NCBI GenBank assembly: GCA_019057385.1
Contig: JAHQJS010000007.1
Span: forward strand, 715,685-779,684
Source of the DNA: Candidatus Borrarchaeum weybense
GTDB taxonomy: Archaea; Asgardarchaeota; Sifarchaeia; Borrarchaeales; Borrarchaeaceae
DNA length: 64,000 nucleotides
Reading direction: 5' to 3'
Below, piece after piece: positions 7,471-42,861 of the stretch (its first letter is position 1; each line of letters opens with the position of its first letter). The notes under the pieces are model-generated. The model had not been told where the DNA came from and ran no database searches. It saw only the letters and a list, made by a program, of their open reading frames with translations. Position numbers and translations under genes: made by a program.

Positions 7471-7599
7471 ACGCAATTTAATGCCTTCATGGTTTTCTTC
7501 AAAGTTAAATACTCACTTGTAATGCTTTATTTCATTTAATTCATATATCAGTCTGTTTAAAACACACTAGCGAAATTTTCTCTCTTAGGTAGAATCATG

Positions 7600-7633
7600 G
7601 GTATGTAGAGGACTGAGGTATGTAGAGGACTGA
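7600..7633 (+). repeat. Perfect 17-bp tandem duplication GGTATGTAGAGGACTGA x2
   Basis: Units at 7600-7616 and 7617-7633. Confidence 0.9.
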
Positions 7634-7646
7634 GACCTAGCACAGC

Positions 7647-7681
7647 TAAAAACCTCACAACTTTAGCGTGAGGTAGTTTAC
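7647..7681 (+). mobile_element. Degenerate IS200/IS605-type right-end remnant
   Basis: CCTCAC-aactttagc-GTGAGG hairpin followed by TAGTTTAC, same layout as the right ends at 9520, 31182 and 37590. Confidence 0.55.
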
Positions 7682-8349
7682 CTAGAAAAACAACTCTTTG
7701 AACCCAAGACAACGACAAGGCAGTCTAGTTCCTTATTGTTGATGGTAGGGGATACTTTTGCTTTGACATCGGCGATATCACCTGGTCGTGCCCAAAAAAT
7801 CCAATCTGATACTTCCAATGAAACGTTCATCTGTAATGGAGGACTTAATAGAGCATCTTCTGGATCAGAATCAGCAGCCTCTTTTAATTTAGAGTCTTCG
7901 GCGAAAAAACTCTTACAATCTAAGATAACAACAAGGCAGTTTAACTGCTTATTCCCAATGCAGGGAGATACTTTAGCATTTATTTGTGCTATATCGCCTG
8001 GTTTAGCCCATAATACCCAATCAGGCACTTCTATTACTGCATTCATCTCCAATGGAGAATTTAATGTAGTATCTTCAGGAAATGATATATAACCTTTCTT
8101 TATTTTAGTACTGAGTGAATAAGAATCCTTCTCTAACTTGGTTCTGCATTTTGGACATACAGCTATGATTTCTCCAGTATTTTTGTCATATTGACGTCCG
8201 ACACCTGCTGGGCATAGAATATCTATGTTACATATTTTGCAATGATATCCCATGTTTTTTCCTGCAGAATCTCTAGGAGTTGACTCAACAACGCATGAAA
8301 AACAATAATCTTTCAGGTCACATGTTATACCCATGGTTGGCAATTTCAT
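7678..8349 (-). CDS. Zn-ribbon/OB-fold protein resembling the MCM N-terminal domain, with duplicated C-terminal OB segment
   Basis: CKIC...CPKC, then two copies of MN...EVxDWxxWAxPGDIAxxxAKVSP; paralogue of 8631-9197. Confidence 0.6.
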   Translation of the reverse strand: MKLPTMGITCDLKDYCFSCVVESTPRDSAGKNMGYHCKICNIDILCPAGVGRQYDKNTGEIIAVCPKCRTKLEKDSYSLSTKIKKGYISFPEDTTLNSPLEMNAVIEVPDWVLWAKPGDIAQINAKVSPCIGNKQLNCLVVILDCKSFFAEDSKLKEAADSDPEDALLSPPLQMNVSLEVSDWIFWARPGDIADVKAKVSPTINNKELDCLVVVLGSKSCFSR

Positions 8350-8630
8350 CTTTCGCTCGAATACCCCTTTTGATCATTTCCCAAATAATGTAATGAACTC
8401 TTAGTTTAAGAGACTAATGGTTAACTTGAATTTCATGAATTCTAGTGGGCCTACATGACTACTCTAAAGAAATAAAACCTCTCAGAGAGAGTTTTTGTCG
8501 GTTGGAAATGAAATGAAATAATTCATGAGACAAGTTAAATAAGATTTTAACTTATGCGGCGGGAAGTCCCCTGAGTAAACTAGGAAACGCTCAATATCGT
8601 CTAAAAAGTAATGTTACTGAAAGTGTTACT

Positions 8631-9197
8631 TTAGCGAGAGATACAACTCTTAGAATTTAAGACCACTACAAGACAGTTTAATTCTTTGTTACCTATACAT
8701 GGCGATACATTAGCTTTGACTTCTGCTATATCACCTGGTTTAGCCCAAAAAACCCATTCAGGTACGTCCATTGTAGCATTCATGTTTAAAGAACGACCAG
8801 CTATGGCATCCGCTGGAAAAGATTTATATCCTTTTAACATTTTCTTGTTAAGATAATAAGAAAACTTCTCTAATTTTCTTCCGCATTTTATACACACATC
8901 TATGATCTCGCCACTTTTTTCGTCATATTGACGTGCGATACCAGCAGGGCATAGTATCTCCATATTGCACGGTTTGCAACGATAACCTAAATTTCGTCCT
9001 GAAGAGTCTTTAGGGGCTGAATTAACAACGCACGCAAAACAATAGTTTTTCAGGTCACAAGCTACGCCATTCGTTGTAAATCTTGGCGTTTTTGATGTTT
9101 TTAATTCATTTTCTGCAACTTTTCGTGAAATTTGTGTATAGAGCATTAAATTAAAAAGAATGATTACCAATGAAAATGTTATTAGTTTTATCATCAT
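8631..9197 (-). CDS. Zn-ribbon/OB-fold protein resembling the MCM N-terminal domain (true start probably downstream of 9197)
   Basis: CKPC...CIKC, WVFWAKPGDIAEVKANV; clear paralogue of 7678-8349; the predicted start overlaps the mobile-element end. Confidence 0.6.
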   Translation of the reverse strand: MMIKLITFSLVIILFNLMLYTQISRKVAENELKTSKTPRFTTNGVACDLKNYCFACVVNSAPKDSSGRNLGYRCKPCNMEILCPAGIARQYDEKSGEIIDVCIKCGRKLEKFSYYLNKKMLKGYKSFPADAIAGRSLNMNATMDVPEWVFWAKPGDIAEVKANVSPCIGNKELNCLVVVLNSKSCISR

Positions 9198-9520
9198 CGT
9201 AAGAAAACCCCTCAGCTTGTTGGGGTGATAAATGAATTGCGTCTTTTACGTGTTTCACTTTCACCCAGGTCTCTGTAATTGTTAAATAATGTTCGCATAC
9301 ATATGATATGTGTCTACCTGCAGGCACGAGGTCGGCATGTGAGTACCCTTCTGAACCCTGTATGCCATAAAGCCAAGTGGGTCTGGAAGGGGACACAGTA
9401 GGGCAGGAACTGTCCGATTTAAAGCCTGTGTTAAGCCGATACCCGTTAAAGGTATGGTTGGAGACGCCGTAGGTCGTCTATAAAGCAGGAAGCCATTCAA
9501 CTTGTTGGATGGTAGTTCAC
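9192..9520 (+). mobile_element. Non-autonomous IS200/IS605 derivative (PATE/MITE-like) carrying a TnpB omegaRNA-type right end
   Basis: Left hairpin ACCCC..GGGGT followed by ATGAATTGCGT; right end AAGCAGGAAG-CCATTCAA..TTGGATGG-TAGTTCAC; no tnpA/tnpB ORF; left boundary approximate. Confidence 0.75.
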
Positions 9521-10430: not shown

Positions 10431-11093
10431 ATGAAACATATTAGTCAAGGGACGCTTTTCGACAAGAAAGAAACAGAAAAACTAAAGAGAGATGTGAGAA
10501 AAATGATGACATCATCAATAATAAATAGCCTTGTGGGCAGAGACGTTCGTAAAGTCAGACAATTTATTTTTAAGATCATTGCAGTTGGGGATGGGACAGC
10601 TGGTAAGACGAGTATTATTAGACGATACGTTCATGAAGAATTCGATTCGAAATACATTAAAACTATCGGCGTGTCTCATGCTTTAAAGAGACTTTGTCTA
10701 AACGATGCTGAAATAACTATAACGATTTGGGATACAGGTGGACAAGAATTATTCGACTGTATAAGACCCCAATACTATAGAGGTGCTCATGGAGTGCTTA
10801 TCGTCTACGACGTGACTAGCCAAGAAAGCTTTGACCATCTTGATAAATGGATAGCTGAATTAGATTTTAACTGCGGAAATGTCCCAAAAATCATTGTTGG
10901 TAATAAAATTGACTTAACAGGTGAAAGGGTCATTCCTCCTGAAGCAGGAGAGAAATATGCGCGTCAAAACTTTGTAAGTCATTCTGAAACCTCTGCAAAA
11001 ACTGGTGAAAATATTGCAGAGGTTATGGAAGAACTCGCTAAATTGATTATCTCAAGAAGCAATAAGTTTAGAGCAGCCCGTGCAAAGAAATAG
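10431..11093 (+). CDS. Rab-like small GTPase (Ras superfamily)
   Basis: G1 GDGTAGKTS, G2 TIG, G3 WDTGGQE, YYRGA, G4 NKID, G5 ETSAK; start may be ATG 10503. Confidence 0.95.
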   Translation: MKHISQGTLFDKKETEKLKRDVRKMMTSSIINSLVGRDVRKVRQFIFKIIAVGDGTAGKTSIIRRYVHEEFDSKYIKTIGVSHALKRLCLNDAEITITIWDTGGQELFDCIRPQYYRGAHGVLIVYDVTSQESFDHLDKWIAELDFNCGNVPKIIVGNKIDLTGERVIPPEAGEKYARQNFVSHSETSAKTGENIAEVMEELAKLIISRSNKFRAARAKK

Positions 11094-11257
11094 ATTTGAT
11101 TAAATCTTCCTATTGTATATTTCCGAAATACAACCGATATCGACGAAATTATGTTTCTGAATCAAATTCATAATTTTAATTTCCGTATTATTTTACAAAA
11201 AGACCAAAATAACATTTCGATCTCTTTACATTTCCCACAGATCGATTTTGTTTTTTA

Positions 11258-11287
11258 TTGCGGAGAAAACTACTAAAATATTTATAA
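11258..11287 (+). promoter_or_regulatory. TTGCGGAGA motif + TATA box of GTPase 2
   Basis: TTGCGGAGA at 11258-11266; TTTATAA at 11281. Confidence 0.65.
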
Positions 11288-11352
11288 TAAGAAGGACGAA
11301 ATACCATTACTTTCATTGATAATTAACACATTTTTTAATTGAGTGATATTTG

Positions 11353-11889
11353 ATGGCTCATTATATCTTTAAGGTAATTGTCGTAGGTGACGGTTCAGTT
11401 GGCAAAACAAGCATTATAAGGAGATACGTTCACGAAAAATTCGATCCATACTATAAAAAAACTATTGGCGTCGCACACGCTGTAAAGAGAATTAATATTA
11501 AGGATACACAGGTAACACTAACTTTATGGGATACTGGTGGGCAAGAACTATTCGATTGTGTGAGACCACAGTATTATAGAGGGGCAAATGGCGTGTTGGT
11601 TGTCTATGATGTCACAAATAAAGAGAGTTTTGATCATCTTGATAAATGGCTTAATGACATATCTGATCAATGTGAAGAGATTCCAATAATACTTGTTGCC
11701 AATAAAATCGACCTGACAAATAAAAATATCATTCCTCGAGAAGAGGGAGAACGTTATGCGCTTAAGAAGAGCTTAACATTTTATGAAACTTCCGCAAAAA
11801 CGGGTAAAATGGTTGTTGATGTTTTAAAAGAACTCGCTAGACTAATGCTCAAAGTGGCCAAAAAGTTAGAGGCTAAGAAGAATCAATAG
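11353..11889 (+). CDS. Rab-like small GTPase
   Basis: GDGSVGKTS, WDTGGQE, YYRGA, NKID, ETSAK. Confidence 0.95.
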   Translation: MAHYIFKVIVVGDGSVGKTSIIRRYVHEKFDPYYKKTIGVAHAVKRINIKDTQVTLTLWDTGGQELFDCVRPQYYRGANGVLVVYDVTNKESFDHLDKWLNDISDQCEEIPIILVANKIDLTNKNIIPREEGERYALKKSLTFYETSAKTGKMVVDVLKELARLMLKVAKKLEAKKNQ

Positions 11890-11996
11890 CATCTAAAGAA
11901 TTTCTATAAGCATTAATTCCAGAAGTTAGACATTTTTTATTACGTTTTAGATCTATCAATCATCAGTAGGCTGTAATAACTAATCTATTCATTATA

Positions 11997-12026
11997 TTGC
12001 GGAGAATTTTACTAGAATACTTAAAT
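11997..12026 (+). promoter_or_regulatory. TTGCGGAGA motif + TATA box of GTPase 3
   Basis: TTGCGGAGA at 11997-12005; CTTAAAT at 12020. Confidence 0.65.
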
Positions 12027-12129
12027 CAACAAAAATATATAGTAATTTTACAGTAAGGAAATCTTATGCGTGTTTTTTAAAACTTTAAGAATGTTCTAAA
12101 CTATGTCCTCTTGATTGAAAGGGATCTTA

Positions 12130-12687
12130 ATGTCTCAATTTATATTTAAAATCATTGCAATCGGCGATGGAACAGTAGGTAAGACGAGTATTATTAGACG
12201 ATTCGTTCACGAAGAATTCAATCCAAAATATGTTAAGACTATCGGCGTATCTCATGCTTTAAAGAGACTTTTTATCGGAGATAACGATGTAACCCTTACT
12301 ATATGGGACACTGGAGGGCAAGAATTATTTGATTGTGTGAGACCACAGTATTACAGGGGAGCCAGCGGAGGATTTGTTATCTTTGACGTCACCAACAAAG
12401 ATAGTTTTGACCATCTTGACAAATGGTTTAATGACCTTAATAACCAATGCAGTGGGATAACTATCATCGTTATTGGTAATAAAATTGATTTAGAAGCGGA
12501 CCGAGTTATCTCTACAGAAGAGGGAGAACAATACGCATTGCAAAAAGGCGTAAAGTTTTTTGAAACTTCAGCAAAGACCGGCGAAAATGTGATTGATGTC
12601 ATGGAAGAACTCGCTAAATTGATTCTTTCGGAGAGGAAAGTCAAGACATCAGAGAAAACGAAAAAAACAGTTGATAAGGCCACGTAA
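12130..12687 (+). CDS. Rab-like small GTPase
   Basis: GDGTVGKTS, WDTGGQE, YYRGA, NKID, ETSAK; ATG 12130 follows SD AAGGGA. Confidence 0.95.
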   Translation: MSQFIFKIIAIGDGTVGKTSIIRRFVHEEFNPKYVKTIGVSHALKRLFIGDNDVTLTIWDTGGQELFDCVRPQYYRGASGGFVIFDVTNKDSFDHLDKWFNDLNNQCSGITIIVIGNKIDLEADRVISTEEGEQYALQKGVKFFETSAKTGENVIDVMEELAKLILSERKVKTSEKTKKTVDKAT

Positions 12688-30986: not shown

Positions 30987-31418
30987 TTAATTGGACCTCA
31001 CTTTGAGCCAGATACAAGTATGACTCTATTTGGAAAGCCTATATCAATGCCAATCTTAGGCTGAAACGGCTAATAAAATCGAAAATGCAATTTCTGCTAC
31101 AATTGCTGAAGGAAAATATGTCACATACGATTAAAAGCCTCCAGAAAAAAAAAGATGAAGCAGTGGGCACAAAAGAATACAGTGAGCTACCTCGTGCTAA
31201 AGCCTCGAGGCTTCCTGCTTCAACGACGGACTCGATCCCCTTGTGGGTTACGGAGGTCTTATCTCCACAGGCTTAACATCCCTACGCCCCGTAGGTACTA
31301 TAATTGGTTTCATAAAAAACTATATAAACATCACGCAATTCATCACCACGCTAAAGCAGTGGTGCTTTCTTGCTTGGTTATCAGTAATGCAGTGATTTCA
31401 CATATTGATGAACAATAG
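30987..31418 (+). pseudogene. Chimeric gene fragments: FMN-dependent alpha-hydroxy-acid oxidase piece plus isocitrate/isopropylmalate dehydrogenase C-terminus split by a mini-IS
   Basis: LIGPHFEPDTSMTLFGKPISMPILG, then ANKIENAISATIAEGKYVTYD*..AVGTKEYS|NAVISHIDEQ*. Confidence 0.6.
31182..31383 (-). mobile_element. 202-bp non-autonomous IS200/IS605 element with omegaRNA-type right end
   Basis: Minus strand: TTAC target, AAAG + left hairpin, GAAG + right hairpin, TCAC end; excision restores the host reading frame; second copy at 37590. Confidence 0.88.
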
Positions 31419-31524
31419 CAATATGAACAATTCGGAAATAATTGAGTTTACTTCTTCCTTCAAAATGAAAAAAGATAGGTATAAGAAGGATAGTGCGTCA
31501 GATATCAGTGATATATGGAGTTCG

Positions 31525-32508
31525 ATGTCTTTGACGAGCGAGCATGTTATTCATCAGTTATTTAAAACTGCTGCTGATTATGCCAAAAAAGCTGTGGAGC
31601 TTGATCGCGCAAATCAGTTTGAGCAGGCCAAAACGCTGTATATAGCTGCAGCGGAGCATTTACAGCGAATCCTCGACCTAGAACAAAATGAAAAAATGAG
31701 AAACATGTATTTTCGCAAAGCTAAGCTATATCTAATACGAGCAAAAGAAATACGAGAACTATTAAGAGGTCCAATAGAAGAGGAAGAAGAAGCAAAGATA
31801 GATGAAGCAGAAGAGATTTTGCCAAGTGTTACTAAAACGGGCGAAGTCTCGGATGAAATTTTACCAAGTATGAGTGACATAACTGAAGAGAAACCAGCTG
31901 CACCAATCTCTGGTGATGTTCACGTTGACTCTCAAGCTCAGGAAATTAGCGATTTAATCTACGAAGCGTTTGAGATTAAAAAGCAGTTAAAAGAAAAAAT
32001 GAATGAATACAATATAGATGATCCAATTACCTTAAAATTGGCTTTAACTGAATTGCAAGACCAAGAGTTAGAAGTTCATCCTACTTATGAAGATTATCTT
32101 TCTATTCAGTCTTTAGAATACTATTTCAAAGAAATACTCTTTAAGTTAGACATCTTTTTAGCAGAATTGAAGGAAAAACCAATTACAGAACAGTTAGAGA
32201 GAGAGTCAATTAAAGATCGATATAATGAATTTGGGAGTATTATAACCTCTGAAGTTTCAGATCTATTGAAAGACGCTCCATCGATCTTTATAGATCGGAT
32301 TGAAATAGTGTTTATTGACAACTCGCAGCTTAAGATTTATTATCCTACAGATTTAGAATATTCTTTTTATTGGTCCAAAGGCGAAGAGATGTTTAATGTA
32401 AATGATACTGTTCCGAATACTATTGCAAGTCCTGAAATTACGCCGAAAGAAAATATTATAAATTTCTTGAACGAATTACGTAATAGAATTGTAATACCTC
32501 CAAAATAG
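31525..32508 (+). CDS. MIT-domain protein with C-terminal antitoxin-like and DUF6516-like regions
   Basis: AADYAKKAVELD..A..LY..AAE.L..IL..E.N...YLIRA.EI is an MIT domain; acidic linker; HPTYEDYL and FIDNSQLKIYYP..YSFYW. Confidence 0.8.
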   Translation: MSLTSEHVIHQLFKTAADYAKKAVELDRANQFEQAKTLYIAAAEHLQRILDLEQNEKMRNMYFRKAKLYLIRAKEIRELLRGPIEEEEEAKIDEAEEILPSVTKTGEVSDEILPSMSDITEEKPAAPISGDVHVDSQAQEISDLIYEAFEIKKQLKEKMNEYNIDDPITLKLALTELQDQELEVHPTYEDYLSIQSLEYYFKEILFKLDIFLAELKEKPITEQLERESIKDRYNEFGSIITSEVSDLLKDAPSIFIDRIEIVFIDNSQLKIYYPTDLEYSFYWSKGEEMFNVNDTVPNTIASPEITPKENIINFLNELRNRIVIPPK

Positions 32509-32518
32509 GAGGCATTTC

Positions 32519-33091
32519 TTGAAAATTTCTTTTCGAGATATTAAAAACAAGAAATTATTAATTTTAGGAGAAGTAGCAAGCGGTAAAACCCAACTTCTAA
32601 TTGAATTGTTGCAGGACACCCTTCAATATGCCGATAAAATCACATTGCTTGATTTTGCTCCATCAGTAAAATTTGTGAAAGGAATGAAAATCGGTGGACG
32701 TGTTAATGAAAGGATTGAAATGCCCTCTAATGTAGATTATTTATGCCCCGAGAGGGTAGAGACACCCCGATTAACGGCGGCTGAAACAAATTCTGCCAAA
32801 CAGTTACTAAGACTTGCTCATACAAATGCAAAAAATATGAGTTTAAAAATCAATGAATTCTTGAAAGCTCCAACAAACATTGTGTTTATTAATGATATCT
32901 CCCTGCTTTTTCAAGTTGGTAATATTGAGCCCGTCGAAAAACTCTTAGAGATCGTTAATACAGCTGTTATTACCGGCTATTACGGTAAAAAACTCGAAGA
33001 AGATCTAGGCACTGGTGTCTCAAAAAAGGAGCGGACATTAATGCAAAAATTATCTAGACAGGTTGATCTTGTTATTAATTTGAACCAGTAG
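32519..33091 (+). CDS. Hypothetical P-loop NTPase
   Basis: Walker A GEVASGKT, LLDFAP, VFINDIS; tightly coupled to the MIT gene. Confidence 0.75.
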   Translation: MKISFRDIKNKKLLILGEVASGKTQLLIELLQDTLQYADKITLLDFAPSVKFVKGMKIGGRVNERIEMPSNVDYLCPERVETPRLTAAETNSAKQLLRLAHTNAKNMSLKINEFLKAPTNIVFINDISLLFQVGNIEPVEKLLEIVNTAVITGYYGKKLEEDLGTGVSKKERTLMQKLSRQVDLVINLNQ

Positions 33092-33107
33092 CAAACAATA
33101 ATTGAAA

Positions 33108-33641
33108 CTATTCTTCAAGAAATTCGTCGAGTATACCCGATTTTCTTAGGATTTTTAAAATAATGAAGCCTAAAACTGATCCAGGAATACAACTTGCTGC
33201 AAATGCTATCCAAAAGAACGTAATATTCGGTGTTGCTCCAATTAAAGGAGCAAAGATCAATGCGGAAATGGTCGCACCAATTATAACAGTTCCAAGAGGC
33301 TCTGCTAGTGCAGCATAATCAGTTTTTTTAAGATATTTGTAAATTATCCCTACCACAAAACCTCCTGGAAGGCCACCAGGAAATGCAAATATTGTGCCCC
33401 ATCCTAAAGAATTTCTAATTATTCCGATTACTAACGCAATAAAAACCGCATAAAGGGGTCCAAGAAGTATTCCTGCTATAGCATTAACTATATGTTGTCC
33501 TGGGAAGACCTTGGTTGGTCCAATAGGGAACCAAAGAAAAGATGCTAACAAAACACCTAAGGCGATTAAGACTGCACTTAAGGCTATTTTTTTAGTTTCA
33601 ACGACCTCTGTATATTTATTTTTTTGTAAGCCTCTTTCCAT
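33108..33641 (-). CDS. thiW: ECF transporter S component ThiW
   Basis: FPGQHIVNAIAGILLGP, GTIFAFPG, EPLGT; adjacent to thiamine genes. Confidence 0.9.
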   Translation of the reverse strand: MERGLQKNKYTEVVETKKIALSAVLIALGVLLASFLWFPIGPTKVFPGQHIVNAIAGILLGPLYAVFIALVIGIIRNSLGWGTIFAFPGGLPGGFVVGIIYKYLKKTDYAALAEPLGTVIIGATISALIFAPLIGATPNITFFWIAFAASCIPGSVLGFIILKILRKSGILDEFLEE

Positions 33642-33745
33642 TCCTTTTCCTCCTCGTTGAATCGTAAACGAAACAACTCTTAGATTGACTTTTATTTTGA
33701 GCAACTTCAATTGAAAGTCTATTATTATCAATCATATATATATAG

Positions 33746-33760
33746 TATAACAAAATTATA
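33746..33760. promoter_or_regulatory. Palindrome TATAA-N5-TTATA (candidate ThiR operator 1)
   Basis: TATAACAAAATTATA between divergent thiW and cytX. Confidence 0.55.
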
Positions 33761-33833
33761 TCAATTTCTAGACAATAAATGAGCCACGAAGCAAGAAAAA
33801 TAGATTAATCCAATATATTGAGATTTATTGTTT

Positions 33834-33852
33834 ATTATAAATCAGTTATAAT
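33834..33852. promoter_or_regulatory. Palindrome ATTATAA-N5-TTATAAT (candidate ThiR operator 2)
   Basis: ATTATAAATCAGTTATAAT just upstream of cytX. Confidence 0.55.
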
Positions 33853-33869
33853 TTGGAAGGGGATAATGT

Positions 33870-35201
33870 TTGACAAAAGCACTGTTTAAAAAGTTCAGAA
33901 TAAGCCCTCCTCCAGAATATGGAATAGAGTCCGTTCCTTCTAAATTGAAAAATTTACGTTTCCTTGATTATTTTGTATTATGGAGTTCTCTGGGAGTTGG
34001 ATTATTGGTTTTTTGGGCAGGTCTCCTTCTTGTACCAGGTCTAGGACTTGGCTTGGCGCTTTTAGCAATTCTCGTTGGACATCTTATCGGAAACTTGTTT
34101 CTAGCACTTGTTGGGACCATTGGTGCTGAAAATGGTATTCCCTCTATGGTTGCAGTTCGCCCATCATTTGGTATTCGTAGTTCATACTTGATGTCCATCT
34201 TGAATTTAATTCAATTAATCGGATGGGCATCTTTTGAGATACTCGTGATGGGACAAGCCGTCGATGCAATAATGGTTTCTACTTTTGGTTACTCTAATTA
34301 TGCCATTTGGGTTCTCGTTTTCGGATTCTTCGTTTTTTTATTAGCCTTTGGAGGTCCACTTACAGTAATAAGAGATTGGTTAAGGAAATTTGCGATTTGG
34401 CTCATTTATGGATTAGGTATTTGGATAACCATCATTGTCTTCACACAATACGATTTGGTTGCATTACTTAACGCTCCATCTACAGGCGAGTTAACATTTT
34501 CGGGAGGTATTGACCTAGTTATTGCGATGCCAATATCATGGGTTCCTCTTGTCGCAGATTATAATAGATTTTCTAAAAACTCGAAAGAAGATTTTTCAGG
34601 CACATATTTAGGTTTCCTAATCACTAGTGGCTGGTGTTATGCTCTAGGAGCTATCACGACATTAGCTACAGGTGAGCCAAACCCCGTTCTCCTTATTATG
34701 GTAATTGTAGGTCCAATTGCAGCTATTCCTTCACTATTAATAGTAGTAACTGATGAAACAGACAATGGGTTTGCAGACGTATACTCTGCTGCAATTTCCG
34801 TCCAAAACGTCTTTCCGAAGGTTAAACAGTGGAAATTAATTATTATAATCAGTATAATAAGTACAGCGCTTGCCTTAGTTTTTGGTTTATCCCCACAGTT
34901 TGAGGAGTATTATATTAATTTCTTGCTTTGGATTGGCTCAGTATTTATTCCTCTATTTGGAATTGTGATCATCGATTACTTTGTTGTGAGAAAGAAGAAG
35001 TTTGATATTTCTGCGATATATGAAAGTAAAAAAGGCGCACTATACTGGTATTGGAAGGGGATTAATCCGCGTGCAATTATTGCATGGATCTGTGGTGTAA
35101 TGATATACTGGATACTTATCTTTGCAGTTCCATGGCTTGGAGGATCACTACTTAGTTTGATAAGTGCCGCTGTTCTCTATTGGCTATTTACAAAACTCTA
35201 G
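33870..35201 (+). CDS. cytX: NCS1-family hydroxymethylpyrimidine transporter
   Basis: About 12 TM; AMPISWVPLVADYNR, DETDNGFADVYS; upstream of thiD. Confidence 0.85.
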   Translation: MTKALFKKFRISPPPEYGIESVPSKLKNLRFLDYFVLWSSLGVGLLVFWAGLLLVPGLGLGLALLAILVGHLIGNLFLALVGTIGAENGIPSMVAVRPSFGIRSSYLMSILNLIQLIGWASFEILVMGQAVDAIMVSTFGYSNYAIWVLVFGFFVFLLAFGGPLTVIRDWLRKFAIWLIYGLGIWITIIVFTQYDLVALLNAPSTGELTFSGGIDLVIAMPISWVPLVADYNRFSKNSKEDFSGTYLGFLITSGWCYALGAITTLATGEPNPVLLIMVIVGPIAAIPSLLIVVTDETDNGFADVYSAAISVQNVFPKVKQWKLIIIISIISTALALVFGLSPQFEEYYINFLLWIGSVFIPLFGIVIIDYFVVRKKKFDISAIYESKKGALYWYWKGINPRAIIAWICGVMIYWILIFAVPWLGGSLLSLISAAVLYWLFTKL

Positions 35202-35255
35202 AACAAATATTTGGCTTTTTAGATTAGCAAACTCAAGAATAAGGTGAAATATATT

Positions 35256-36608
35256 ATGAGAAAGATTCCCTGTGCTTTAACTATAGCTGGTTCCGACAGT
35301 GGGGGCGGGGCGGGTATTCAGGCAGACTTAAAAACATTTGCAGCCCTCGGTGTTCATGGAATGAGCGCAATCACAGCAGTAACAGCACAAAATACGGTTG
35401 ATGTAACCGCGATTCAAGATATATCTCCTGATTTAATAAGCGCTCAAATTAATGCAGTTTGGGACGATATTGGTGTGGATGCTGCTAAAACGGGTATGCT
35501 TCACACTGTTGAAATTATTAAAGTAGTTGCAGAGGAAATCGAAAATAAGGGATTTCCTACTGTTGTTGATCCCGTTATGATATCAAAAAGTGGTGTTCCT
35601 TTACTCAAAGAGGAAGCTGTGAATAGTTTGATCTCCCATATCCTCCCAAAAGCTGATGTTATAACTCCAAATGCTCATGAAGCAGAAAAACTCTCTGGAA
35701 TGCAGATAGAGTCCCTTGAAGACGCCAAGAAAGCGGCGATAAACCTAGCAGAATTAGGTCCAAAGGCAGTCGTGGTAAAAGGAGGACATATTTTTTCTGA
35801 GGATGGTTCAATAGATGTATTATATTATAATGAGGAATTTGTTACAGTGACCTCCGAAAGAATTGATACTAAAACGACGCATGGAACTGGATGTTGTTTT
35901 GCTGCAGCAATTGCTGCTGAAATCGCTAAAGGAAAAGATATAAACGAAGCTTTTATTGTTGCAAAAGACCTTATTACCGAAGGAATACGACATGGACTCC
36001 CACTTGGTAAAGGATATGGCCCCGTTAGTCCTATGGCCCATCTTTACAACGAAGCTGAGAGATATTATGTTCTAAAAGATGTACAAAATGCGCTTGAGAA
36101 ACTTGAGAAAAATCCAAAAATGATTCAACTCATTCCAGAAGTACGATCAAACTTAATTATGGCTACATCTTATGCTATAGACGCTAAAGATGTTGTTGGT
36201 ATTCCAGGGCGAATAACTGCTACAAAGGATGGAATAAAAGCTGTTATGTGTCCAACTTTCGGCGTATCTCAGCATGTAGCGAACACTATATTAACTGCAA
36301 AAAGATATGATCCTTTAATTAAAGCTGGAATGAATTTGCGTTATTCTGAAGAAATTCTTGAGATATGTAAAAAATCGAATTTCTTAATTTCCTGTTATGA
36401 CCGTAAAAAGGAACCTCAGGATATAAAAACGAAAGAGGGCAAAACAACAGCTTGGGGCGCTGAGCAAGCGATTGAAGCTGTTGGAAGAGTGCCAGACGTT
36501 ATCTACCACACCGGTGACTTGGGAAAAGAACCAATGATAACAATATTGGGCAATTCAGCATTAGCTGTTGCCCAAAAGGTCTTAAGAATTTCAAAAAATC
36601 TGCCCTAA
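35256..36608 (+). CDS. thiD: Bifunctional HMP/HMP-P kinase - thiamine-phosphate synthase (ThiDN)
   Basis: IAGSDSGGGAGIQADLKT, VDPVM, HGTGC; ThiN region LIPEVRSN, GDLGKEPM. Confidence 0.95.
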   Translation: MRKIPCALTIAGSDSGGGAGIQADLKTFAALGVHGMSAITAVTAQNTVDVTAIQDISPDLISAQINAVWDDIGVDAAKTGMLHTVEIIKVVAEEIENKGFPTVVDPVMISKSGVPLLKEEAVNSLISHILPKADVITPNAHEAEKLSGMQIESLEDAKKAAINLAELGPKAVVVKGGHIFSEDGSIDVLYYNEEFVTVTSERIDTKTTHGTGCCFAAAIAAEIAKGKDINEAFIVAKDLITEGIRHGLPLGKGYGPVSPMAHLYNEAERYYVLKDVQNALEKLEKNPKMIQLIPEVRSNLIMATSYAIDAKDVVGIPGRITATKDGIKAVMCPTFGVSQHVANTILTAKRYDPLIKAGMNLRYSEEILEICKKSNFLISCYDRKKEPQDIKTKEGKTTAWGAEQAIEAVGRVPDVIYHTGDLGKEPMITILGNSALAVAQKVLRISKNLP

Positions 36609-36750
36609 AATTTACATGGATTATGCGAAGGTTTAAAGCGGAAAATAGAGGGTACCTTCAAGAAAAATTATAAAAAGAAGGAGCTTCATACAGAACGTTT
36701 TACCTATAGATATGATGTATATAGTCTACTTCAATAGAAGGTGAGTAAGT

Positions 36751-36984
36751 TTGCAACCTCCACCACCAGAAATTCTATTCGGTTTTGGTATTTTAGCACT
36801 TATGATAGCCATTGGAGTTATATGGTTTGTAGTTGCTATATTGATTGCAGTCTGGGTGTATAGAGATGCCGAAAAGAGGGGCGAGAGCGGAGCATTGTGG
36901 TTAATTATCGTATTGATTACGGGGATAATCGGTTTGATAATTTGGCTGATTGTCAGGGGAGACAAGCCTGAGATAAAATCATAA
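36751..36984 (+). CDS. Small membrane protein (PLDc_N-like), paralogue of 27784-28134 without zinc ribbon
   Basis: AVWVYRDAEKRGESG.LWLIIVLITGIIGLIIWLIVRGDKP shared; SD GGTGA + TTG. Confidence 0.8.
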   Translation: MQPPPPEILFGFGILALMIAIGVIWFVVAILIAVWVYRDAEKRGESGALWLIIVLITGIIGLIIWLIVRGDKPEIKS

Positions 36985-37014
36985 AAACAATCACAATAAA
37001 AAAAAGAAGATAAA

Positions 37015-37542
37015 CTAAACGAAATCGATGTACACTGTTGCAGTGAAGTCTGGGATTGTCTCAAAGTTAAAAATCACATCAAGTCGAACTGATTGACCTC
37101 TTACTTCTTCTTTATACTCTGCGATTTCTTCAGCAGCTACAGTAAAACTATCAGTTTCGTCCAGTCCAGCAAGGATATCAAACCCTTCTTTTCCATCACC
37201 ATCATCATCAGCATTATCGACATCGATGTTGTGCGTATAGATCTTAACTTCCCAGTCCCAGATTCCTAGAATCCTTTGGACAGAATAAATCTCCATGGAC
37301 ATATCCGTGAGATGGACCGTCTCACCGTTATTTTGAATAGCGAGGTCTACACTGATAGCATTGTCAACGTTTATTGTAAGTGGGTTATCCTTAGTATTGT
37401 ACTGAGATACATCATTGCCGTTTATTAAAACTGTCATCGATAGATCCTGGTGTGTGTATGCTGCATTAGATAGCGGAGCGAACGTACTAAGTGCAAATAG
37501 AGCTACAAGCAATAAACCAATTATTGATGTAGATTTCCTCAA
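37015..37542 (-). CDS. Secreted beta-rich protein (family member 1)
   Basis: Signal peptide ending SNA-A; YTHQDL..NG.DVS..GETVHL..DVDNADDDGDGKEGFDI..IPDFTATVY. Confidence 0.85.
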   Translation of the reverse strand: MRKSTSIIGLLLVALFALSTFAPLSNAAYTHQDLSMTVLINGNDVSQYNTKDNPLTINVDNAISVDLAIQNNGETVHLTDMSMEIYSVQRILGIWDWEVKIYTHNIDVDNADDDGDGKEGFDILAGLDETDSFTVAAEEIAEYKEEVRGQSVRLDVIFNFETIPDFTATVYIDFV

Positions 37543-37589
37543 AATAATTCACCTTTCCTAAAGTCTTTTCTCATTATCCAATTATCTGA

Positions 37590-37793
37590 GTGAGCTACCT
37601 CGTGCTTAAGCCTTGAGGCTTCCTGCTTCTACGACAGACTCGATCCCCTTGCGGGTTACGGAGGTCTTATCTCCACAGGCTTAACATCCCTACGCCCCGT
37701 AGGTACTCATAGACGCAAGGAGCACCAGATTATATGAACCCAACGCCATTCATCACCACGCTAAAACATTGGTGCTTTCTTGCTTGGCTTTTT
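37590..37793 (-). mobile_element. 204-bp non-autonomous IS200/IS605 element with omegaRNA-type right end
   Basis: TTAC target (GTAA 37794-37797), AAAG/GAAG guide tetramers, TCAC end; 117-nt right part differs from the 31182 copy at 5 positions. Confidence 0.88.
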
Positions 37794-37815
37794 GTAAGAT
37801 AAATAGATCTCCATC

Positions 37816-37836
37816 TTTAATAATTCTTTTAGTACA
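37816..37836 (-). promoter_or_regulatory. TGTACTAAAA-N3-TTATTAAA promoter motif
   Basis: Same motif at 38505-38525 and 42216-42236. Confidence 0.65.
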
Positions 37837-37874
37837 ATTTTTTCCCTTACTATAAGGTTTTTTAATTTGAAACA

Positions 37875-37913
37875 AAGCAAGAATGCTACCCACTTTAGTT
37901 AGAAATGAATTGC
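37875..37913 (+). mobile_element. Orphan degenerate left end of the same IS200/IS605 mini-element family
   Basis: AAGCAAGAATGC..CTTTAG..ATGAATTGC resembles AAGCAAGAAAGC..CTTTAG..ATGAATTGC. Confidence 0.55.
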
Positions 37914-38057
37914 TAAAGGCAGATACTTGTGAAAAAGATTGTTTAGACTTAATAAATAAGCCTGGAAAAAGTCTAGTTTGGTAAAATAAATAATAAGATA
38001 AAAAAATGAAAAATCTGGAGTTCTTGATATCGAAATGCTACTCAATCTAAAGAGCCA

Positions 38058-38429
38058 TTATTGAGTCTTCCAGAAATATTTGAGTGCATACAAAAGATAT
38101 ATCGTTAGAACTAGGAATGAACCAAATGTAAGCCACGTAGCAGTCAAGCCTAACGCTGAAATTATTAAACCGATTACTGCGAGTACGGTAGTGGCAAACC
38201 AAGACCATTTTTTCATGTACCATAATCCACTTCCCACAGCCATCACGATAAGCGCTAGGAAAATCCAGCCAATCCCTAAAATCAACTCATTACCTACGCC
38301 CCACAACGGTGTCGTAAGTAGTGTGACTGCTATAACCCCTAGGAAGATCAATCCTCGGACTAATACAATGATACCAACGATATAGACTAGAATTGCTAAA
38401 AGGGTGATACCAATAGGTCGTTTTTCCAT
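38058..38429 (-). CDS. Small 4-TM membrane protein
   Basis: KRPIGITLLAIL..GLW.MKKWSW; four hydrophobic helices. Confidence 0.8.
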   Translation of the reverse strand: MEKRPIGITLLAILVYIVGIIVLVRGLIFLGVIAVTLLTTPLWGVGNELILGIGWIFLALIVMAVGSGLWYMKKWSWFATTVLAVIGLIISALGLTATWLTFGSFLVLTIYLLYALKYFWKTQ

Positions 38430-38504
38430 ATTATTCTCTCCTCATTTTTTTGATTTTCATTATTTAGAATTACTTATCAGTTAAAACTGATATAATAGAG
38501 TTTA

Positions 38505-38525
38505 TTTGATAAGCCTTTTAGTACA
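38505..38525 (-). promoter_or_regulatory. TGTACTAAAA-N3-TTATCAAA promoter motif
   Basis: Shared with the two secreted-protein genes; palindrome TATCAGTT-AA-AACTGATA at 38475-38492 lies downstream. Confidence 0.6.
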
Positions 38526-38589
38526 CCGTTTGCACATGCCAAAAATCGATTGTGGGGCATTTTTTGCATGAAAAAAATCGAGTTCACGC

Positions 38590-39795
38590 CTAAACAAAAC
38601 TTTCAGGTAGAATTTTTCGTAAGACAAGATTCTTTTTGTTAATAAAAAACTTCTTTTGTCCATTTTCCAGTATAACGTTAATTATTTTTGCGTCTACAAG
38701 CTTTTTCATATTATATCTGATGGTTCCCTGAGATTTCCCTAATTGCTTTGCAATAAGATTCTGGTATGCCCCAGGGTTTTTTGAAATGAATTGAACTATC
38801 GCTTTAGCAGTATTGCTTTTTAATATTAATCGGGGATCCTTCGGTGAAATCTTTCTTCCAGTTGGATAATAAACTTTGTACTGCTTATATCTATGAGAGC
38901 CAATAAATCCAAAATCTTCTAGAACCTGTAAATGCCAAACTCCTGCAAAGGGTCCTATATCGATATAATCAATAATCTCACGAAAATGGGCACCCTCATT
39001 ATTGATAATATAGTCGTAAATTTTCTCTCTGGTAACATTCGTTAAAATTTCATCTTTTTTAAGATTTCTAACCGCCGGTGGACGAATTACTGTCCCAATA
39101 GCTACACAAAACGTAGCTAATTTTTTCACAACTTTGAAGGTAAATTCCCTATTTGTAAGGATAACCGCAAAAGAGACGGCTATCGCACTTATTGTAGAGA
39201 ATACAATCAATTCTGACGTTTGAATTCCTTTAAAAAGATCAAATAAGCCATTAGAACCTTCAGATGCTATTTGTCCTTCTCTTAGGTATACGGTAATAAA
39301 ATAATCTGGGATAATTTCAAAGTTAAGGTTGATATCAACACGCACTCGTTGACCTCTAATTTGCTCTTTATACTCTTTAATCTCTTCTGAATATACAACA
39401 AAATTACGGGATTCACTCATTCCCGACTCTATATCAAAACCTTCTTTTCCATCACCGTCTTCATCATTATTGTCGACATCTATGTAATGTGTAAAAACTT
39501 TCGCTTCTTGATCCCATAAGAGAATCTCTTGAACTGTATAGACATCGATTGACGCATCGATTAGGTGAACAGATTCGCCAGCGTTTGATATATCTAAATC
39601 TATTTCTATATCGTTTTCAATATCTATTACAAGCGGAGTTTCCTTAGTATTATGCAGAGATATGTCATTATCATTTACTAAAACTGTAAATGTGAGGTCG
39701 TGGTGTGTATATGAGGCGTTTAGAGACGAAACAAGAGCATTAATGGTGAAAAGCATCATAAAAATGAAAACTAGAACAGACACAGATTTTCTCAA
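38590..39795 (-). CDS. Membrane-anchored transcription regulator: secreted-family ectodomain + TM + double winged HTH
   Basis: Signal peptide, same ectodomain as 37015, TM segment, then TREKIYDYI..GAHFREI..WHLQVLE and NPGAYQNLIAKQLGKS..IRYNMKKL (COG3398-like). Confidence 0.85.
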   Translation of the reverse strand: MRKSVSVLVFIFMMLFTINALVSSLNASYTHHDLTFTVLVNDNDISLHNTKETPLVIDIENDIEIDLDISNAGESVHLIDASIDVYTVQEILLWDQEAKVFTHYIDVDNNDEDGDGKEGFDIESGMSESRNFVVYSEEIKEYKEQIRGQRVRVDINLNFEIIPDYFITVYLREGQIASEGSNGLFDLFKGIQTSELIVFSTISAIAVSFAVILTNREFTFKVVKKLATFCVAIGTVIRPPAVRNLKKDEILTNVTREKIYDYIINNEGAHFREIIDYIDIGPFAGVWHLQVLEDFGFIGSHRYKQYKVYYPTGRKISPKDPRLILKSNTAKAIVQFISKNPGAYQNLIAKQLGKSQGTIRYNMKKLVDAKIINVILENGQKKFFINKKNLVLRKILPESFV

Positions 39796-39982
39796 AATGC
39801 TTTCATCCCTTGTTTGGAAGCCAATAGACTTTTTATTGATTCTCTATATATACTTAAATTATTAAGTTTTAGAATGCATTAAAATCGATTTAATAAATAA
39901 AAAACATACTATAGAAATTCACAAATAAAAGATCCAGCAATTTGATTTAGGTAAAATGCTTTATCATTAAAAGAATTTGTAT

Positions 39983-41308
39983 TTACACTGAAAACGCATT
40001 TTCAGGGAGAATTCTACGTAAAGCTAGGTTCTTTTCGTTAATATAAAATCTCTTTTGCCCATTTTCCTTCATAATGTTGATTATTTTTGCGTCTACAAGC
40101 TTTTTCATATTATATCTAATCGCCCCTGAAGATTTCCCTAATTGCTTTGCAATAAGATTCTGGTATGCCCCAGGGTTTTTTAAAATAAAGCGAACGATCG
40201 CCTTAGCAGTCTTACTTTTTAATACTAAGCGGGGATCCTTCAGTGGAATTACTTTTCCTGCAATTAATGGATAGAAAATCTTATAGTGCTTATATCTGCG
40301 AGAGACAATGAATCCAAAGTCTTCTAGAACCTGCAAATGCCAGGTGCCCTCAAATGGACCAATATCAATGTGATTGATAATTTCGCGAAAATGAGCGCCT
40401 TCATGAGAACAAATGTAGTTATAAATTCGATCTCGGGTATCATTCGTTAATACCTCATCTTCTTTAAGATTTCTAATTGAAGGTGGACGAACTACAGTAC
40501 CAATAGCTACAATAAATGCTTCAGCACTTATAATAACAAAAAACATTTCACCAATCTTGAAAATTAGAGCTGCAAACTTGAGTGCAATTTTTTTATTCGT
40601 TTGCATTACAACAAATGAGACTAAAAGAGCGCTTGCTGTTGTATATAAAATCAATTGTGACGTTTCAACCCCTCTAAACGGGTCAAATAAGTCTATCGTA
40701 TATTCTGTATCTTGTGTAACTCCATTATCACTAATACCTTCCGTATTTCCGTCTGTTTCCGTTTTATTGGAGGCTTCTGGTGAAACTACACCTTCTTCTA
40801 TATAAACAGTAATAGTATAGTCAGATATAGTTTCAAAATTGAAAGTTAAATCAACCCGAGCTCTTTGATCTCTCATTAGTTCCTTGTATTCTTCAATATC
40901 TTTTGACCTTAATCTAAGACTTTTTGATTCTGCCAATCCAGCAACAATATCGAAACCTTCTCTTCCATCGCCATCTTCGTCACCATTATCAACATCGATG
41001 TTGTATTTAAAGATCTTTGTTTCATAATCCCAAAAAAGTGCTTTCTGGATTGTATAGACCTCAATTGATGTGTCTATTAAATGAATTGTCTCGCCTGTGT
41101 TCGAGATATCAAAATCTATCTCGATATCGTTATCTACATCCAATAAAAGTGGGTTATTTTTAGTGTGACTTGATACTTCACTACCGTTTATCAAGACAGT
41201 TATAGTAAGGTCTTGATGTGTATAAGCAGCATTTCCAGGGGAGATAAAAGCTGATAATGTGACTAGTGTTACAAATACCAGGATAAAGATGGGCAGATTT
41301 TTTTTCAA
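39983..41308 (-). CDS. Membrane-anchored transcription regulator: secreted-family ectodomain + TM + double winged HTH
   Basis: Paralogue of 38590-39795 with a longer S/T/E-rich stalk and an extra hydrophobic segment. Confidence 0.85.
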   Translation of the reverse strand: MKKNLPIFILVFVTLVTLSAFISPGNAAYTHQDLTITVLINGSEVSSHTKNNPLLLDVDNDIEIDFDISNTGETIHLIDTSIEVYTIQKALFWDYETKIFKYNIDVDNGDEDGDGREGFDIVAGLAESKSLRLRSKDIEEYKELMRDQRARVDLTFNFETISDYTITVYIEEGVVSPEASNKTETDGNTEGISDNGVTQDTEYTIDLFDPFRGVETSQLILYTTASALLVSFVVMQTNKKIALKFAALIFKIGEMFFVIISAEAFIVAIGTVVRPPSIRNLKEDEVLTNDTRDRIYNYICSHEGAHFREIINHIDIGPFEGTWHLQVLEDFGFIVSRRYKHYKIFYPLIAGKVIPLKDPRLVLKSKTAKAIVRFILKNPGAYQNLIAKQLGKSSGAIRYNMKKLVDAKIINIMKENGQKRFYINEKNLALRRILPENAFSV

Positions 41309-42414: not shown

Positions 42415-42861
42415 CTATTCTTGGTCTTCTAATTCACCATCATCTTTGCTTAAAGCGAATTCCTTAATCTCTTGCAGGTTCCTTTCCATCCATTCTTTTC
42501 CAATATTCGTCTCAAGTAATTCAACTACCTCATCTTTGCCTTTTAGTTTTAAATACCATCTTATGACCGTTACGTTCATTGCTCTTATGGCTAAACGACT
42601 CATACGGCTCAAATCAACTAACAAGGGCTCTAAGATCGGAGATATCGACCTATCATTCTCAATATAAAGTTCACAAATGTCCCTGGTCAGATTATCAAAT
42701 ATTAAGCCATAATGATGCTTTTTTTCAGCCACGGCATCAAGAACCTCCCAGATATTCTTGAGTATTTGTTCTTGCTCTTCACCATTATTCGAATACGCTA
42801 AGTCAATCATTTCTTTTCTTAGGGCATCTATCTCCTCTTGAGTCATTTCTATTTCGGTCAT
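42415..42861 (-). CDS. Hypothetical helical protein
   Basis: 148-aa ORF with SD AGGAG. Confidence 0.65.
   Translation of the reverse strand: MTEIEMTQEEIDALRKEMIDLAYSNNGEEQEQILKNIWEVLDAVAEKKHHYGLIFDNLTRDICELYIENDRSISPILEPLLVDLSRMSRLAIRAMNVTVIRWYLKLKGKDEVVELLETNIGKEWMERNLQEIKEFALSKDDGELEDQE

Follow-up and report, generated by a model that had tools for sequence, protein, structure and literature searches.

Our analyses indicate that a 64,000-nucleotide (nt) stretch of the genome of Candidatus Borrarchaeum weybense (assembly GCA_019057385.1, contig JAHQJS010000007.1, positions 715,685 to 779,684; hereafter, the window) carries two members of a large family of protein-less mini-elements. The evidence favors the view, to which we assign a probability of about three in four, that these are nonautonomous deletion derivatives of a resident IS200/IS605 tnpB element, resembling palindrome-associated transposable elements (PATEs), and that they make guide RNAs that are used by TnpB in trans. 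On this view, each mini-element would retain a left end comprising a hairpin and the tetranucleotide for target recognition, the TATA promoter of tnpB, an omegaRNA scaffold in trimmed form, and, at the right end, a hairpin and a cleavage site. Precise insertion 3′ of TTAC, homology to tnpB 3′ ends, and compensated helices can be read from the sequence; the later steps we infer. A preliminary description, made from the letters of the window, had proposed mobile, protein-less IS200/IS605 elements whose right part is an omegaRNA scaffold serving a trans-encoded TnpB, and had suggested a genome-wide BLAST search, a search for parent tnpA and tnpB genes with the same ends, and a covariance model of the scaffold. 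All three were carried out, and the data below bear out the proposed anatomy and origin, with use of the scaffold by TnpB in trans being likely.

Both window copies lie on the minus strand, copy A at positions 31182-31383 (202 nt) and copy B at 37590-37793 (204 nt), and they align end to end. Alignment and direct reading agreed with the preliminary description on these coordinates, on the tetranucleotides TTAC, AAAG, GAAG, and TCAC, and on a shared right part with five differences, a similar left end, and a divergent middle of ∼35 nt. Specifically, identity is 96% over 119 aligned nt in the right parts (31181-31299 and 37589-37707) and 84% over ∼67 nt in the left ends (31321-31387 and 37731-37797). 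The similarity ends exactly at TTAC on the left and past TCAC on the right. In both copies, the left hairpin is immediately preceded on its 5′ side by AAAG, at 19 nt from TTAC; GAAG lies 5′ of the right hairpin, and TCAC forms the terminus. The left hairpin (CACCAC/GTGGTG) and the right hairpin (CCTCG/CGAGG) have similar loops, and the termini are not inverted repeats. The ends are thus asymmetric, with subterminal imperfect hairpins and no terminal inverted repeats, as in the IS200/IS605 family, and at the level of sequence the pairing of AAAG with TTAC and of GAAG with TCAC follows the guide-tetranucleotide rule of that family. An 87-amino acid (aa) open reading frame (ORF) that spans copy A on the plus strand (31155-31418) was dismissed, since it runs on the strand opposite to copy A and extends over the repeat itself.

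Comparison with two species of the same genus, G003 and G004, revealed that the copy A site is empty in both. In G003, ...GCAATAC is directly joined to TGTATTCTTTTGTGCCCACT, giving the tetranucleotide ATAC, and in G004 ...GCGTTGC is followed by AGTATTC..., giving TTGC. Therefore, copy A is an exact 202-nt insertion 3′ of a TTAC-like tetranucleotide, in which nothing was duplicated, and its boundaries are proven. A specific tetranucleotide 5′ of the insertion without target-site duplication is again the IS200/IS605 pattern. The reciprocal case was also found, in that a G004 copy (96% identical) occupies a site whose flanks stand ∼11 nt apart in the present genome, where the site is empty. For copy B, comparison with G004 yielded no clean empty site because the locus is ∼2.4 kb longer here than in G004, including a paralogue duplication. 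Separately, window positions 37591-39987, which hold copy B and a paralogous helix-turn-helix gene, correspond to ∼110 nt in G004, and a ∼4.3-kb block between the two copies (32491-36751; a small ORF, ThiW, a cytosine/purine-type permease, and a ThiD-ThiN fusion) corresponds to ∼180 nt.

To count the family, we used copy A in BLAST searches of the genome (4.18 Mb, eight contigs, ∼37% G+C) and paired left-end with right-end matches. This gave at least 35 complete copies, which fall into a short class (16 copies of 206 to 212 nt, typically ∼208 nt), a long class (18 copies of 303 to 327 nt, typically ∼319 nt), and one intermediate of 342 nt; fragments consisting of only the scaffold or only the left end are present as well. 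The tetranucleotides recur throughout the complete copies, with TTAC at the left flank in 29 of 35, AAAG in 29, GAAG in 32, and TCAC in 30. The flanks of the copies are unrelated (mean identity 0.30). Elsewhere in the genome we noted about nine micro-elements of ∼50 nt, composed of TTAC, the 19-nt left linker with AAAG, one hybrid hairpin, and TAGTTCAC (G000:C7:539692, C7:814148, C7:843092, C6:591985, C6:583515, C6:804279, C4:585177, C4:997792, and C5:217675). Their hairpin joins the left arm of the left-end hairpin to the right arm of the right-end hairpin, with neither promoter nor scaffold, and they resemble deletions that join the two end hairpins at their similar loops.

The genome contains 41 matches to the TnpB domain PF07282, which cluster into several tnpB families. 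One of these, with proteins of ∼423 to 432 aa and about seven intact genes plus fragments, is the cognate family of the mini-elements. In this family, 10 nt separate the stop codon from a right end matching theirs, and direct alignment of the mini-elements with 11 resident tnpB 3′ ends showed that the last ∼150 nt of the cognate tnpB elements are homologous to the whole conserved right part (∼120 nt) of the mini-elements. The right part thus matches a region that overlaps the 3′ end of tnpB, and it has the position of an omegaRNA scaffold, as it ends at the TCAC terminus, where the flank diverges at once and the predicted guide lies outside. On the other side, the mini-elements match the left ends of two full-length variants, over ∼75 nt in the short class and ∼110 nt in the long class. 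The long class, in addition, keeps an extra ∼60-nt module from inside tnpB, where it is located 313 to 375 nt upstream of the right end. The module's outer stem covaries from one tnpB subfamily to another (GGAG/CTCC versus GGTG/CACC). The homology to full-length elements, the left-end matches, and the retained modules together argue that the mini-elements are internal-deletion derivatives of tnpB elements, in which RNA modules were kept and coding sequence was lost.

Comparison of the scaffolds revealed how they were trimmed. Helix 1 is identical in the mini-elements and the cognate tnpB elements and fully compensated in a second tnpB subfamily (CCTACG/CGTAGG versus GGTAGG/CCTACC). The tnpB inner stem, GGAATAC...GTATTCC, and its enclosing helix are reduced in the mini-elements to a 3-bp stem with a 4-nt loop, usually GCAA, giving an inner hairpin of CCC, a GNRA-like loop, and GGG. 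The 342-nt intermediate retains the full-length inner stem. RNAalifold analysis of 36 sequences gave four helices, with compensatory changes at 10 of the 24 pairs, and from this alignment we built a covariance model, which we searched against the host genome and 151 sampled genomes of the phylum. The model matched 68 places in the host genome, ∼37 of them of the trimmed mini type (above 120 bits) and ∼13 of the full-length type. It also matched 37 of the 151 genomes, in 16 of 52 genera, and the trimmed scaffold persists in several genera. In an alignment of 84 distinct sequences, which come from several genera, the paired fraction of cells is 95.4%, compared to 77.5% in shuffled controls and 31 to 41% with slid partners, a percentage inflated by the fitting of this alignment to the model; the number of pairs changed on both sides, 18 of 24, is less affected. 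Judged from these alignments, the scaffold helices are maintained by compensatory changes, as expected of an omegaRNA. At gathering thresholds, Rfam searches returned no family anywhere in the window. The sole family with a suggestive match to copy A is RAGATH-18 (RF03064; window 31212-31271, minus strand, 24.9 bits, E = 0.012), and as the gathering score is 44.9, membership was rejected. RAGATH-18 is a known family of TnpB guide RNAs, which serve IS607 TnpB (PMC11061315). It is similar to the mini-element right part in being a TnpB guide-RNA scaffold but differs in belonging to IS607 elements, which use a serine recombinase.

A promoter-like element accompanies the scaffold. In the short class, a TATA box (consensus GTTTATATAG) is found at a fixed position ∼15 nt after the left hairpin, followed by a 24-nt spacer (∼23 nt in copy A) and then the first scaffold helix. 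Within this class, identity is highest in the scaffold (0.87), followed by the TATA box (0.80) and the left end (0.78), and falls to 0.57 in the spacer and 0.30 in the flanks. In the long class, the box lies ∼110 nt from the left end, upstream of the extra module. In each case it corresponds to the tnpB promoter of the parent elements and may well work as a promoter. The usual archaeal spacing between TATA box and start site would put the transcription start 1 to 3 nt before the scaffold. The host is archaeal, as seen from its 16S gene and from the ThiN and HVO_0163-type genes in the window, and the closest tnpB relatives come from Candidatus Borrarchaeum, Sifarchaeum, and other Asgard metagenome-assembled genomes. 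The 16S match itself (G000:C5:332567-335232, 1223 bits) covers 2666 nt for a 1478-position model, leaving ∼1.2 kb of inserted sequence, probably an intron or other insertion. Oligo-T terminators within 60 nt of the right ends are not enriched (23%, versus 20% at random TTAC sites), and the transcript 3′ ends are therefore not predictable; a T9 run is present ∼27 nt past the right end of copy A. A TATA promoter apparently placed for a start at the scaffold and a naturally trimmed scaffold are points that go beyond the preliminary description.

These patterns bear on two other readings. In one, the mini-elements are inert deletion relics, spread by TnpA alone, with the scaffold carried along beside the right hairpin and no RNA made or used. 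The scaffold-less micro-elements fit such a picture, and because the right parts of the long class are 92 to 97% alike, some of the conservation could reflect recent spread. However, for TnpA the subterminal hairpins suffice, together with the cleavage and guide tetranucleotides (PMC3201880), whereas the best-conserved part of the mini-elements is ∼85 nt more, upstream of the right hairpin. This scaffold was kept via compensatory changes while the adjoining 24-nt spacer drifted, the TATA box distance is fixed, and the trimmed scaffold recurs in several genera. On balance, we consider inert relics unlikely. In the other reading, the right part works not as RNA but as single-stranded DNA, for instance by giving the transposase or the replication fork further contacts in the course of peel-and-paste transposition. 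IS200/IS605 transposition does use folded single-stranded DNA, and covariation cannot separate DNA hairpins from RNA hairpins. This explanation nevertheless appears to us very improbable, as the right part is a tnpB 3′ end, the site of omegaRNAs in every studied TnpB system (PMC8612924, PMC10055086), a putative promoter was kept directly upstream of the scaffold, and the tolerated U-G (58 of 84 sequences at one pair) and G-U (71 of 84 at another) combinations are better accommodated in RNA than in DNA.

If the right part is an omegaRNA scaffold, the guide would be the host DNA next to it. Taking as guide the 20 nt past the right end, we compared the guides of 35 copies with the genome using blastn-short. 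Each guide matches the genome only at its own locus, and there the match is preceded by TCAC rather than TTAC. TTAC is the transposon-adjacent motif (TAM) predicted from the insertion rule, and for none of the 35 guides was a second genomic site with at least 13 matched bases and a TTAC TAM found by this search. The guides of copies A and B likewise gave no exact 20-mer match in viral contigs. The copy A guide matches the empty allele of G003 perfectly, as predicted by the published homing model, in which the donor site, once vacated, is cut by TnpB and the element is regained through repair (PMC10055086). Since each guide is the DNA beside its own insertion, the guides are most simply explained as serving homing to the vacated site, and not as a targeting repertoire. 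The dispersed guide-RNA repertoire envisaged in the preliminary description, understood as a targeting system, thus finds no support.

We next consider the proteins that would act in trans. The cognate TnpB matches ISDra2 TnpB structures (E = 2e-17) as well as Pfam families PF07282 and PF01385. Its RuvC-I and RuvC-III motifs have their aspartates, and its zinc finger the cysteines. Pairwise and multiple alignments place, opposite the canonical RuvC-II glutamate (E278 of ISDra2), a glutamine that is invariant in the cognate clade, which includes Asgard, Thermoplasmata, Aquificota, and Thermotogota relatives. A conserved Glu/Asp stands two positions after this glutamine, in the motif C-Y-Q-D-E-N (residues ∼296 to 302 of the TnpB encoded at G000:C5:22984-24282, and relatives), and the catalytic acidic residue has probably shifted along the strand. 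The sole Y1 transposase of the genome is a single PF01797 gene (G000:C7:194191-194619, 131 bits), which sits in a tnpA-tnpB element of a third tnpB family. The right end of that family has the same frame, GCAGGAAGCC, hairpin, and GGTAGTTCAC, with different hairpin stems and the target TTTAA. Cross-mobilization of the mini-elements by this TnpA is plausible by analogy with Geobacillus, for which it has been proposed. Intact cognate tnpB genes and one tnpA, candidates for the trans-acting partners, are thus present in the genome. Two arrangements involving these elements were also noted. A tnpB of the TTTAA family (C7:546899-548224) is inserted 16 nt downstream of a TTAC-family right end (G000:C7:548304-548452) and thus lies inside the would-be omegaRNA guide region. 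Further, in the sole tnpA-tnpB element (G000:C7:193700-196200), the 10 nt after the right end (ATAGACTTGG) are identical to the first 10 nt of its own left end, suggesting either a junction of right end and left end or a partial tandem copy.

The glutamine also raises the question of domestication, whereby the RNAs would guide a nuclease-weak, TldR-like TnpB, or an outward promoter would drive a neighboring gene, and the mini-elements would serve host control. Both window copies are indeed close to gene starts, copy A standing 24 nt before an ATG at 31408 and copy B reading into an ORF that starts at 37542. Yet copy A is an insertion polymorphism between sister species, the copies occupy unrelated loci, no guide has a second TAM-flanked target, and the flank of each element bears TCAC rather than TTAC. 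Moreover, the zinc finger of the TnpB is retained, as are the aspartates of RuvC-I and RuvC-III, and an acidic residue is conserved near RuvC-II. A regulatory role of this kind is, in our estimate, very unlikely. Equally doubtful is a broader version of the idea, in which a weak or altered-nuclease TnpB (Q-x-E/D) and several dozen self-transcribed mini-guides would form a trans-acting, RNA-guided DNA-binding layer. Many mini-elements do stand just upstream of genes, and such a layer, if it existed, could help a polyploid Asgard archaeon to regulate genes or to control its chromosome copies, beyond transposon homing.

Returning to the reading of PATE-like, guide-producing derivatives, we propose the following cycle. 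Transcription would run from the first scaffold helix, ∼23 nt past the TATA box, across the right end and into the flank, yielding an omegaRNA with the adjacent host DNA as its guide. TnpB from a full-length element would bind this mini-element omegaRNA in trans, and the single Y1 TnpA, also in trans, would excise the mini-element. The rejoined donor site, having both TTAC and the guide match, would then be cut and repaired from a filled chromosome copy, with the result that the element is retained. The occupied site would escape cutting, as it has TCAC instead of TTAC before the guide match. From these sequence comparisons, we regard both expression and action in trans as likely.

Several points weigh against this reading. 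The promoter, the transcript, and TnpB loading are all steps that we infer. The sole tnpA belongs to a different tnpB subfamily, with other stems and a TTTAA target, and its mobilization of the mini-elements is assumed. The glutamine in the RuvC-II glutamate column means that nuclease activity is not certain. The paired fraction in the 84-sequence alignment carries the inflation described above. Finally, the existence of about nine scaffold-less ∼50-nt derivatives means that a scaffold is not required for a derivative to persist.

The element type is already known in bacteria. Geobacillus stearothermophilus has PATE-like elements without protein genes that encode omegaRNAs (Meers et al. 2023, PMC10055086). 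Similar to these, the mini-elements have no protein gene, share their ends with resident tnpB elements, carry an omegaRNA module at the right end, and would need both TnpA and TnpB in trans, in a genome with many tnpB copies and very few tnpA. They differ in their Asgard archaeal host, TATA-box promoter, and naturally shortened scaffold; in their two size classes, of which the long one keeps a second RNA module from inside tnpB; and in outnumbering intact cognate tnpB genes by ∼5:1. Mobilized stand-alone omegaRNAs occur beside effector loci and work in trans, according to the summary that PMC10691335 gives of Altae-Tran et al. 2021. As summarized there, those loci likewise lack effector and transposase in genomes that also hold effector-bearing loci; the mini-elements, whose own function in trans is likely, differ from them, as far as that summary goes, in being of the TnpB type with complete IS200/IS605 ends. 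With omegaRNA-encoding PATEs and stand-alone omegaRNAs published (PMC10055086, PMC10691335), the principle is not new. The mini-elements stand out by having an Asgard host, a putative TATA promoter, a naturally trimmed scaffold, two size classes, and many copies relative to the cognate tnpB genes.

Two further comparisons concern the ends. In IS608 of Helicobacter pylori, TTAC lies 19 nt 5′ of the left hairpin and is paired with the guide AAAG (PMC3201880). The mini-elements share this arrangement: TTAC and the left hairpin foot, which is marked by AAAG, are 19 nt apart, the right hairpin also has a guide tetranucleotide on its 5′ side, and the target is not duplicated. In contrast to IS608, their right cleavage site is TCAC with guide GAAG rather than TCAA, both partners differing at the fourth base only; this site is 8 nt from the hairpin foot compared to 10 nt, and the hairpin sequences are unrelated. 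By description, the PATEs of Haloquadratum walsbyi (PMC3119063) are also archaeal, protein-less, and IS200/IS605-related, with palindromic ends, and were described before omegaRNAs were known.

The mini-elements would represent a natural example of a TnpB guide-RNA unit cut to ∼200 nt, comprising the ends, promoter, and scaffold with one stem trimmed, that could still spread. The persistence of the family across several Asgard genera, at ∼5:1 over the nuclease genes, supports the view of TnpA, TnpB, and omegaRNA as separable modules, and the trimmed scaffold could provide a natural template for shortening TnpB guide RNAs.

Table 1. Coordinates, in the window, of the two mini-elements, their parts, and related features
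Feature	Position	Strand	Basis or remarks
Copy A, complete short-class mini-element	31182..31383	-	Left end 31383, right end 31182; both fixed to the base by empty sites in G003 and G004
Copy A TTAC target and predicted TAM, just 5′ of left end	31384..31387	-	Read from sequence
Copy A left end: 19-nt linker ending in AAAG, then hairpin CACCAC / 9-nt loop / GTGGTG	31344..31383	-	Read from sequence
Copy A TATA box TTTATATA	31321..31328	-	Position conserved in short class; putative promoter
Copy A omegaRNA-type scaffold, including right-end hairpin and TCAC terminus (31182-31217)	31182..31302	-	Covariance-model match (147.7 bits), tnpB 3′-end homology, covariation
Copy A predicted guide, flank TGTATTCTTTTGTGCCCACT	31162..31181	-	Sole full genomic match is own locus
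Copy B, complete short-class mini-element	37590..37793	-	Alignment with copy A
Copy B TTAC target and predicted TAM	37794..37797	-	Read from sequence
Copy B TATA-like box TTCATATA, positioned as in copy A	37731..37738	-	Comparison with copy A and short class
Copy B omegaRNA-type scaffold, including right-end hairpin and TCAC	37590..37710	-	Covariance-model match (145.7 bits)
Copy B predicted guide TCAGATAATTGGATAATGAG, reading toward the start of the minus-strand ORF 37015-37542	37570..37589	-	Flank sequence
Protein-less 333-nt element of a different subfamily	9188..9520	+	Inserts after TTTAT; four genomic copies; right hairpin with CTTG loop
Degenerate right-end remnant, hairpin CCTCAC...GTGAGG, terminus mutated to TTAC	7597..7681	+	Covariance model, 25.4 bits, E = 1e-4

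Two further features of the window are listed in Table 1. The preliminary description had reported a related larger element at 9192-9520, as well as two remnants, making five traces in 64 kb. The larger element exists and is protein-less, but it starts at 9188 and, inserted after TTTAT, belongs to a different subfamily. It is related to a tnpB family of ∼390 aa and not to the cognate family of ∼430 aa, and its scaffold, at 9394-9520, is only distantly related (covariance-model match of 46 bits). One remnant (7597-7681) was recovered; a second remnant, and with it the fifth trace, was not found in the window. Positions 42520 and 49273, tried as the second remnant, were rejected because the motif matches are at chance level and have no hairpin context.

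Elsewhere in the genome, one ordinary Cas1 gene is present at C4:153602-154474, and two weak Cas1-domain matches (G000:C5:121343-122176 and C4:342074-342907) lie inside open frames of 1347 and 1367 aa. Within the window, diverged direct repeats of 67 to 81% identity, spaced by ∼740 to 2250 nt, were found at 7674-8939, 10551-12629, and 37049-41032, and indicate tandem arrays of paralogous genes near the elements.

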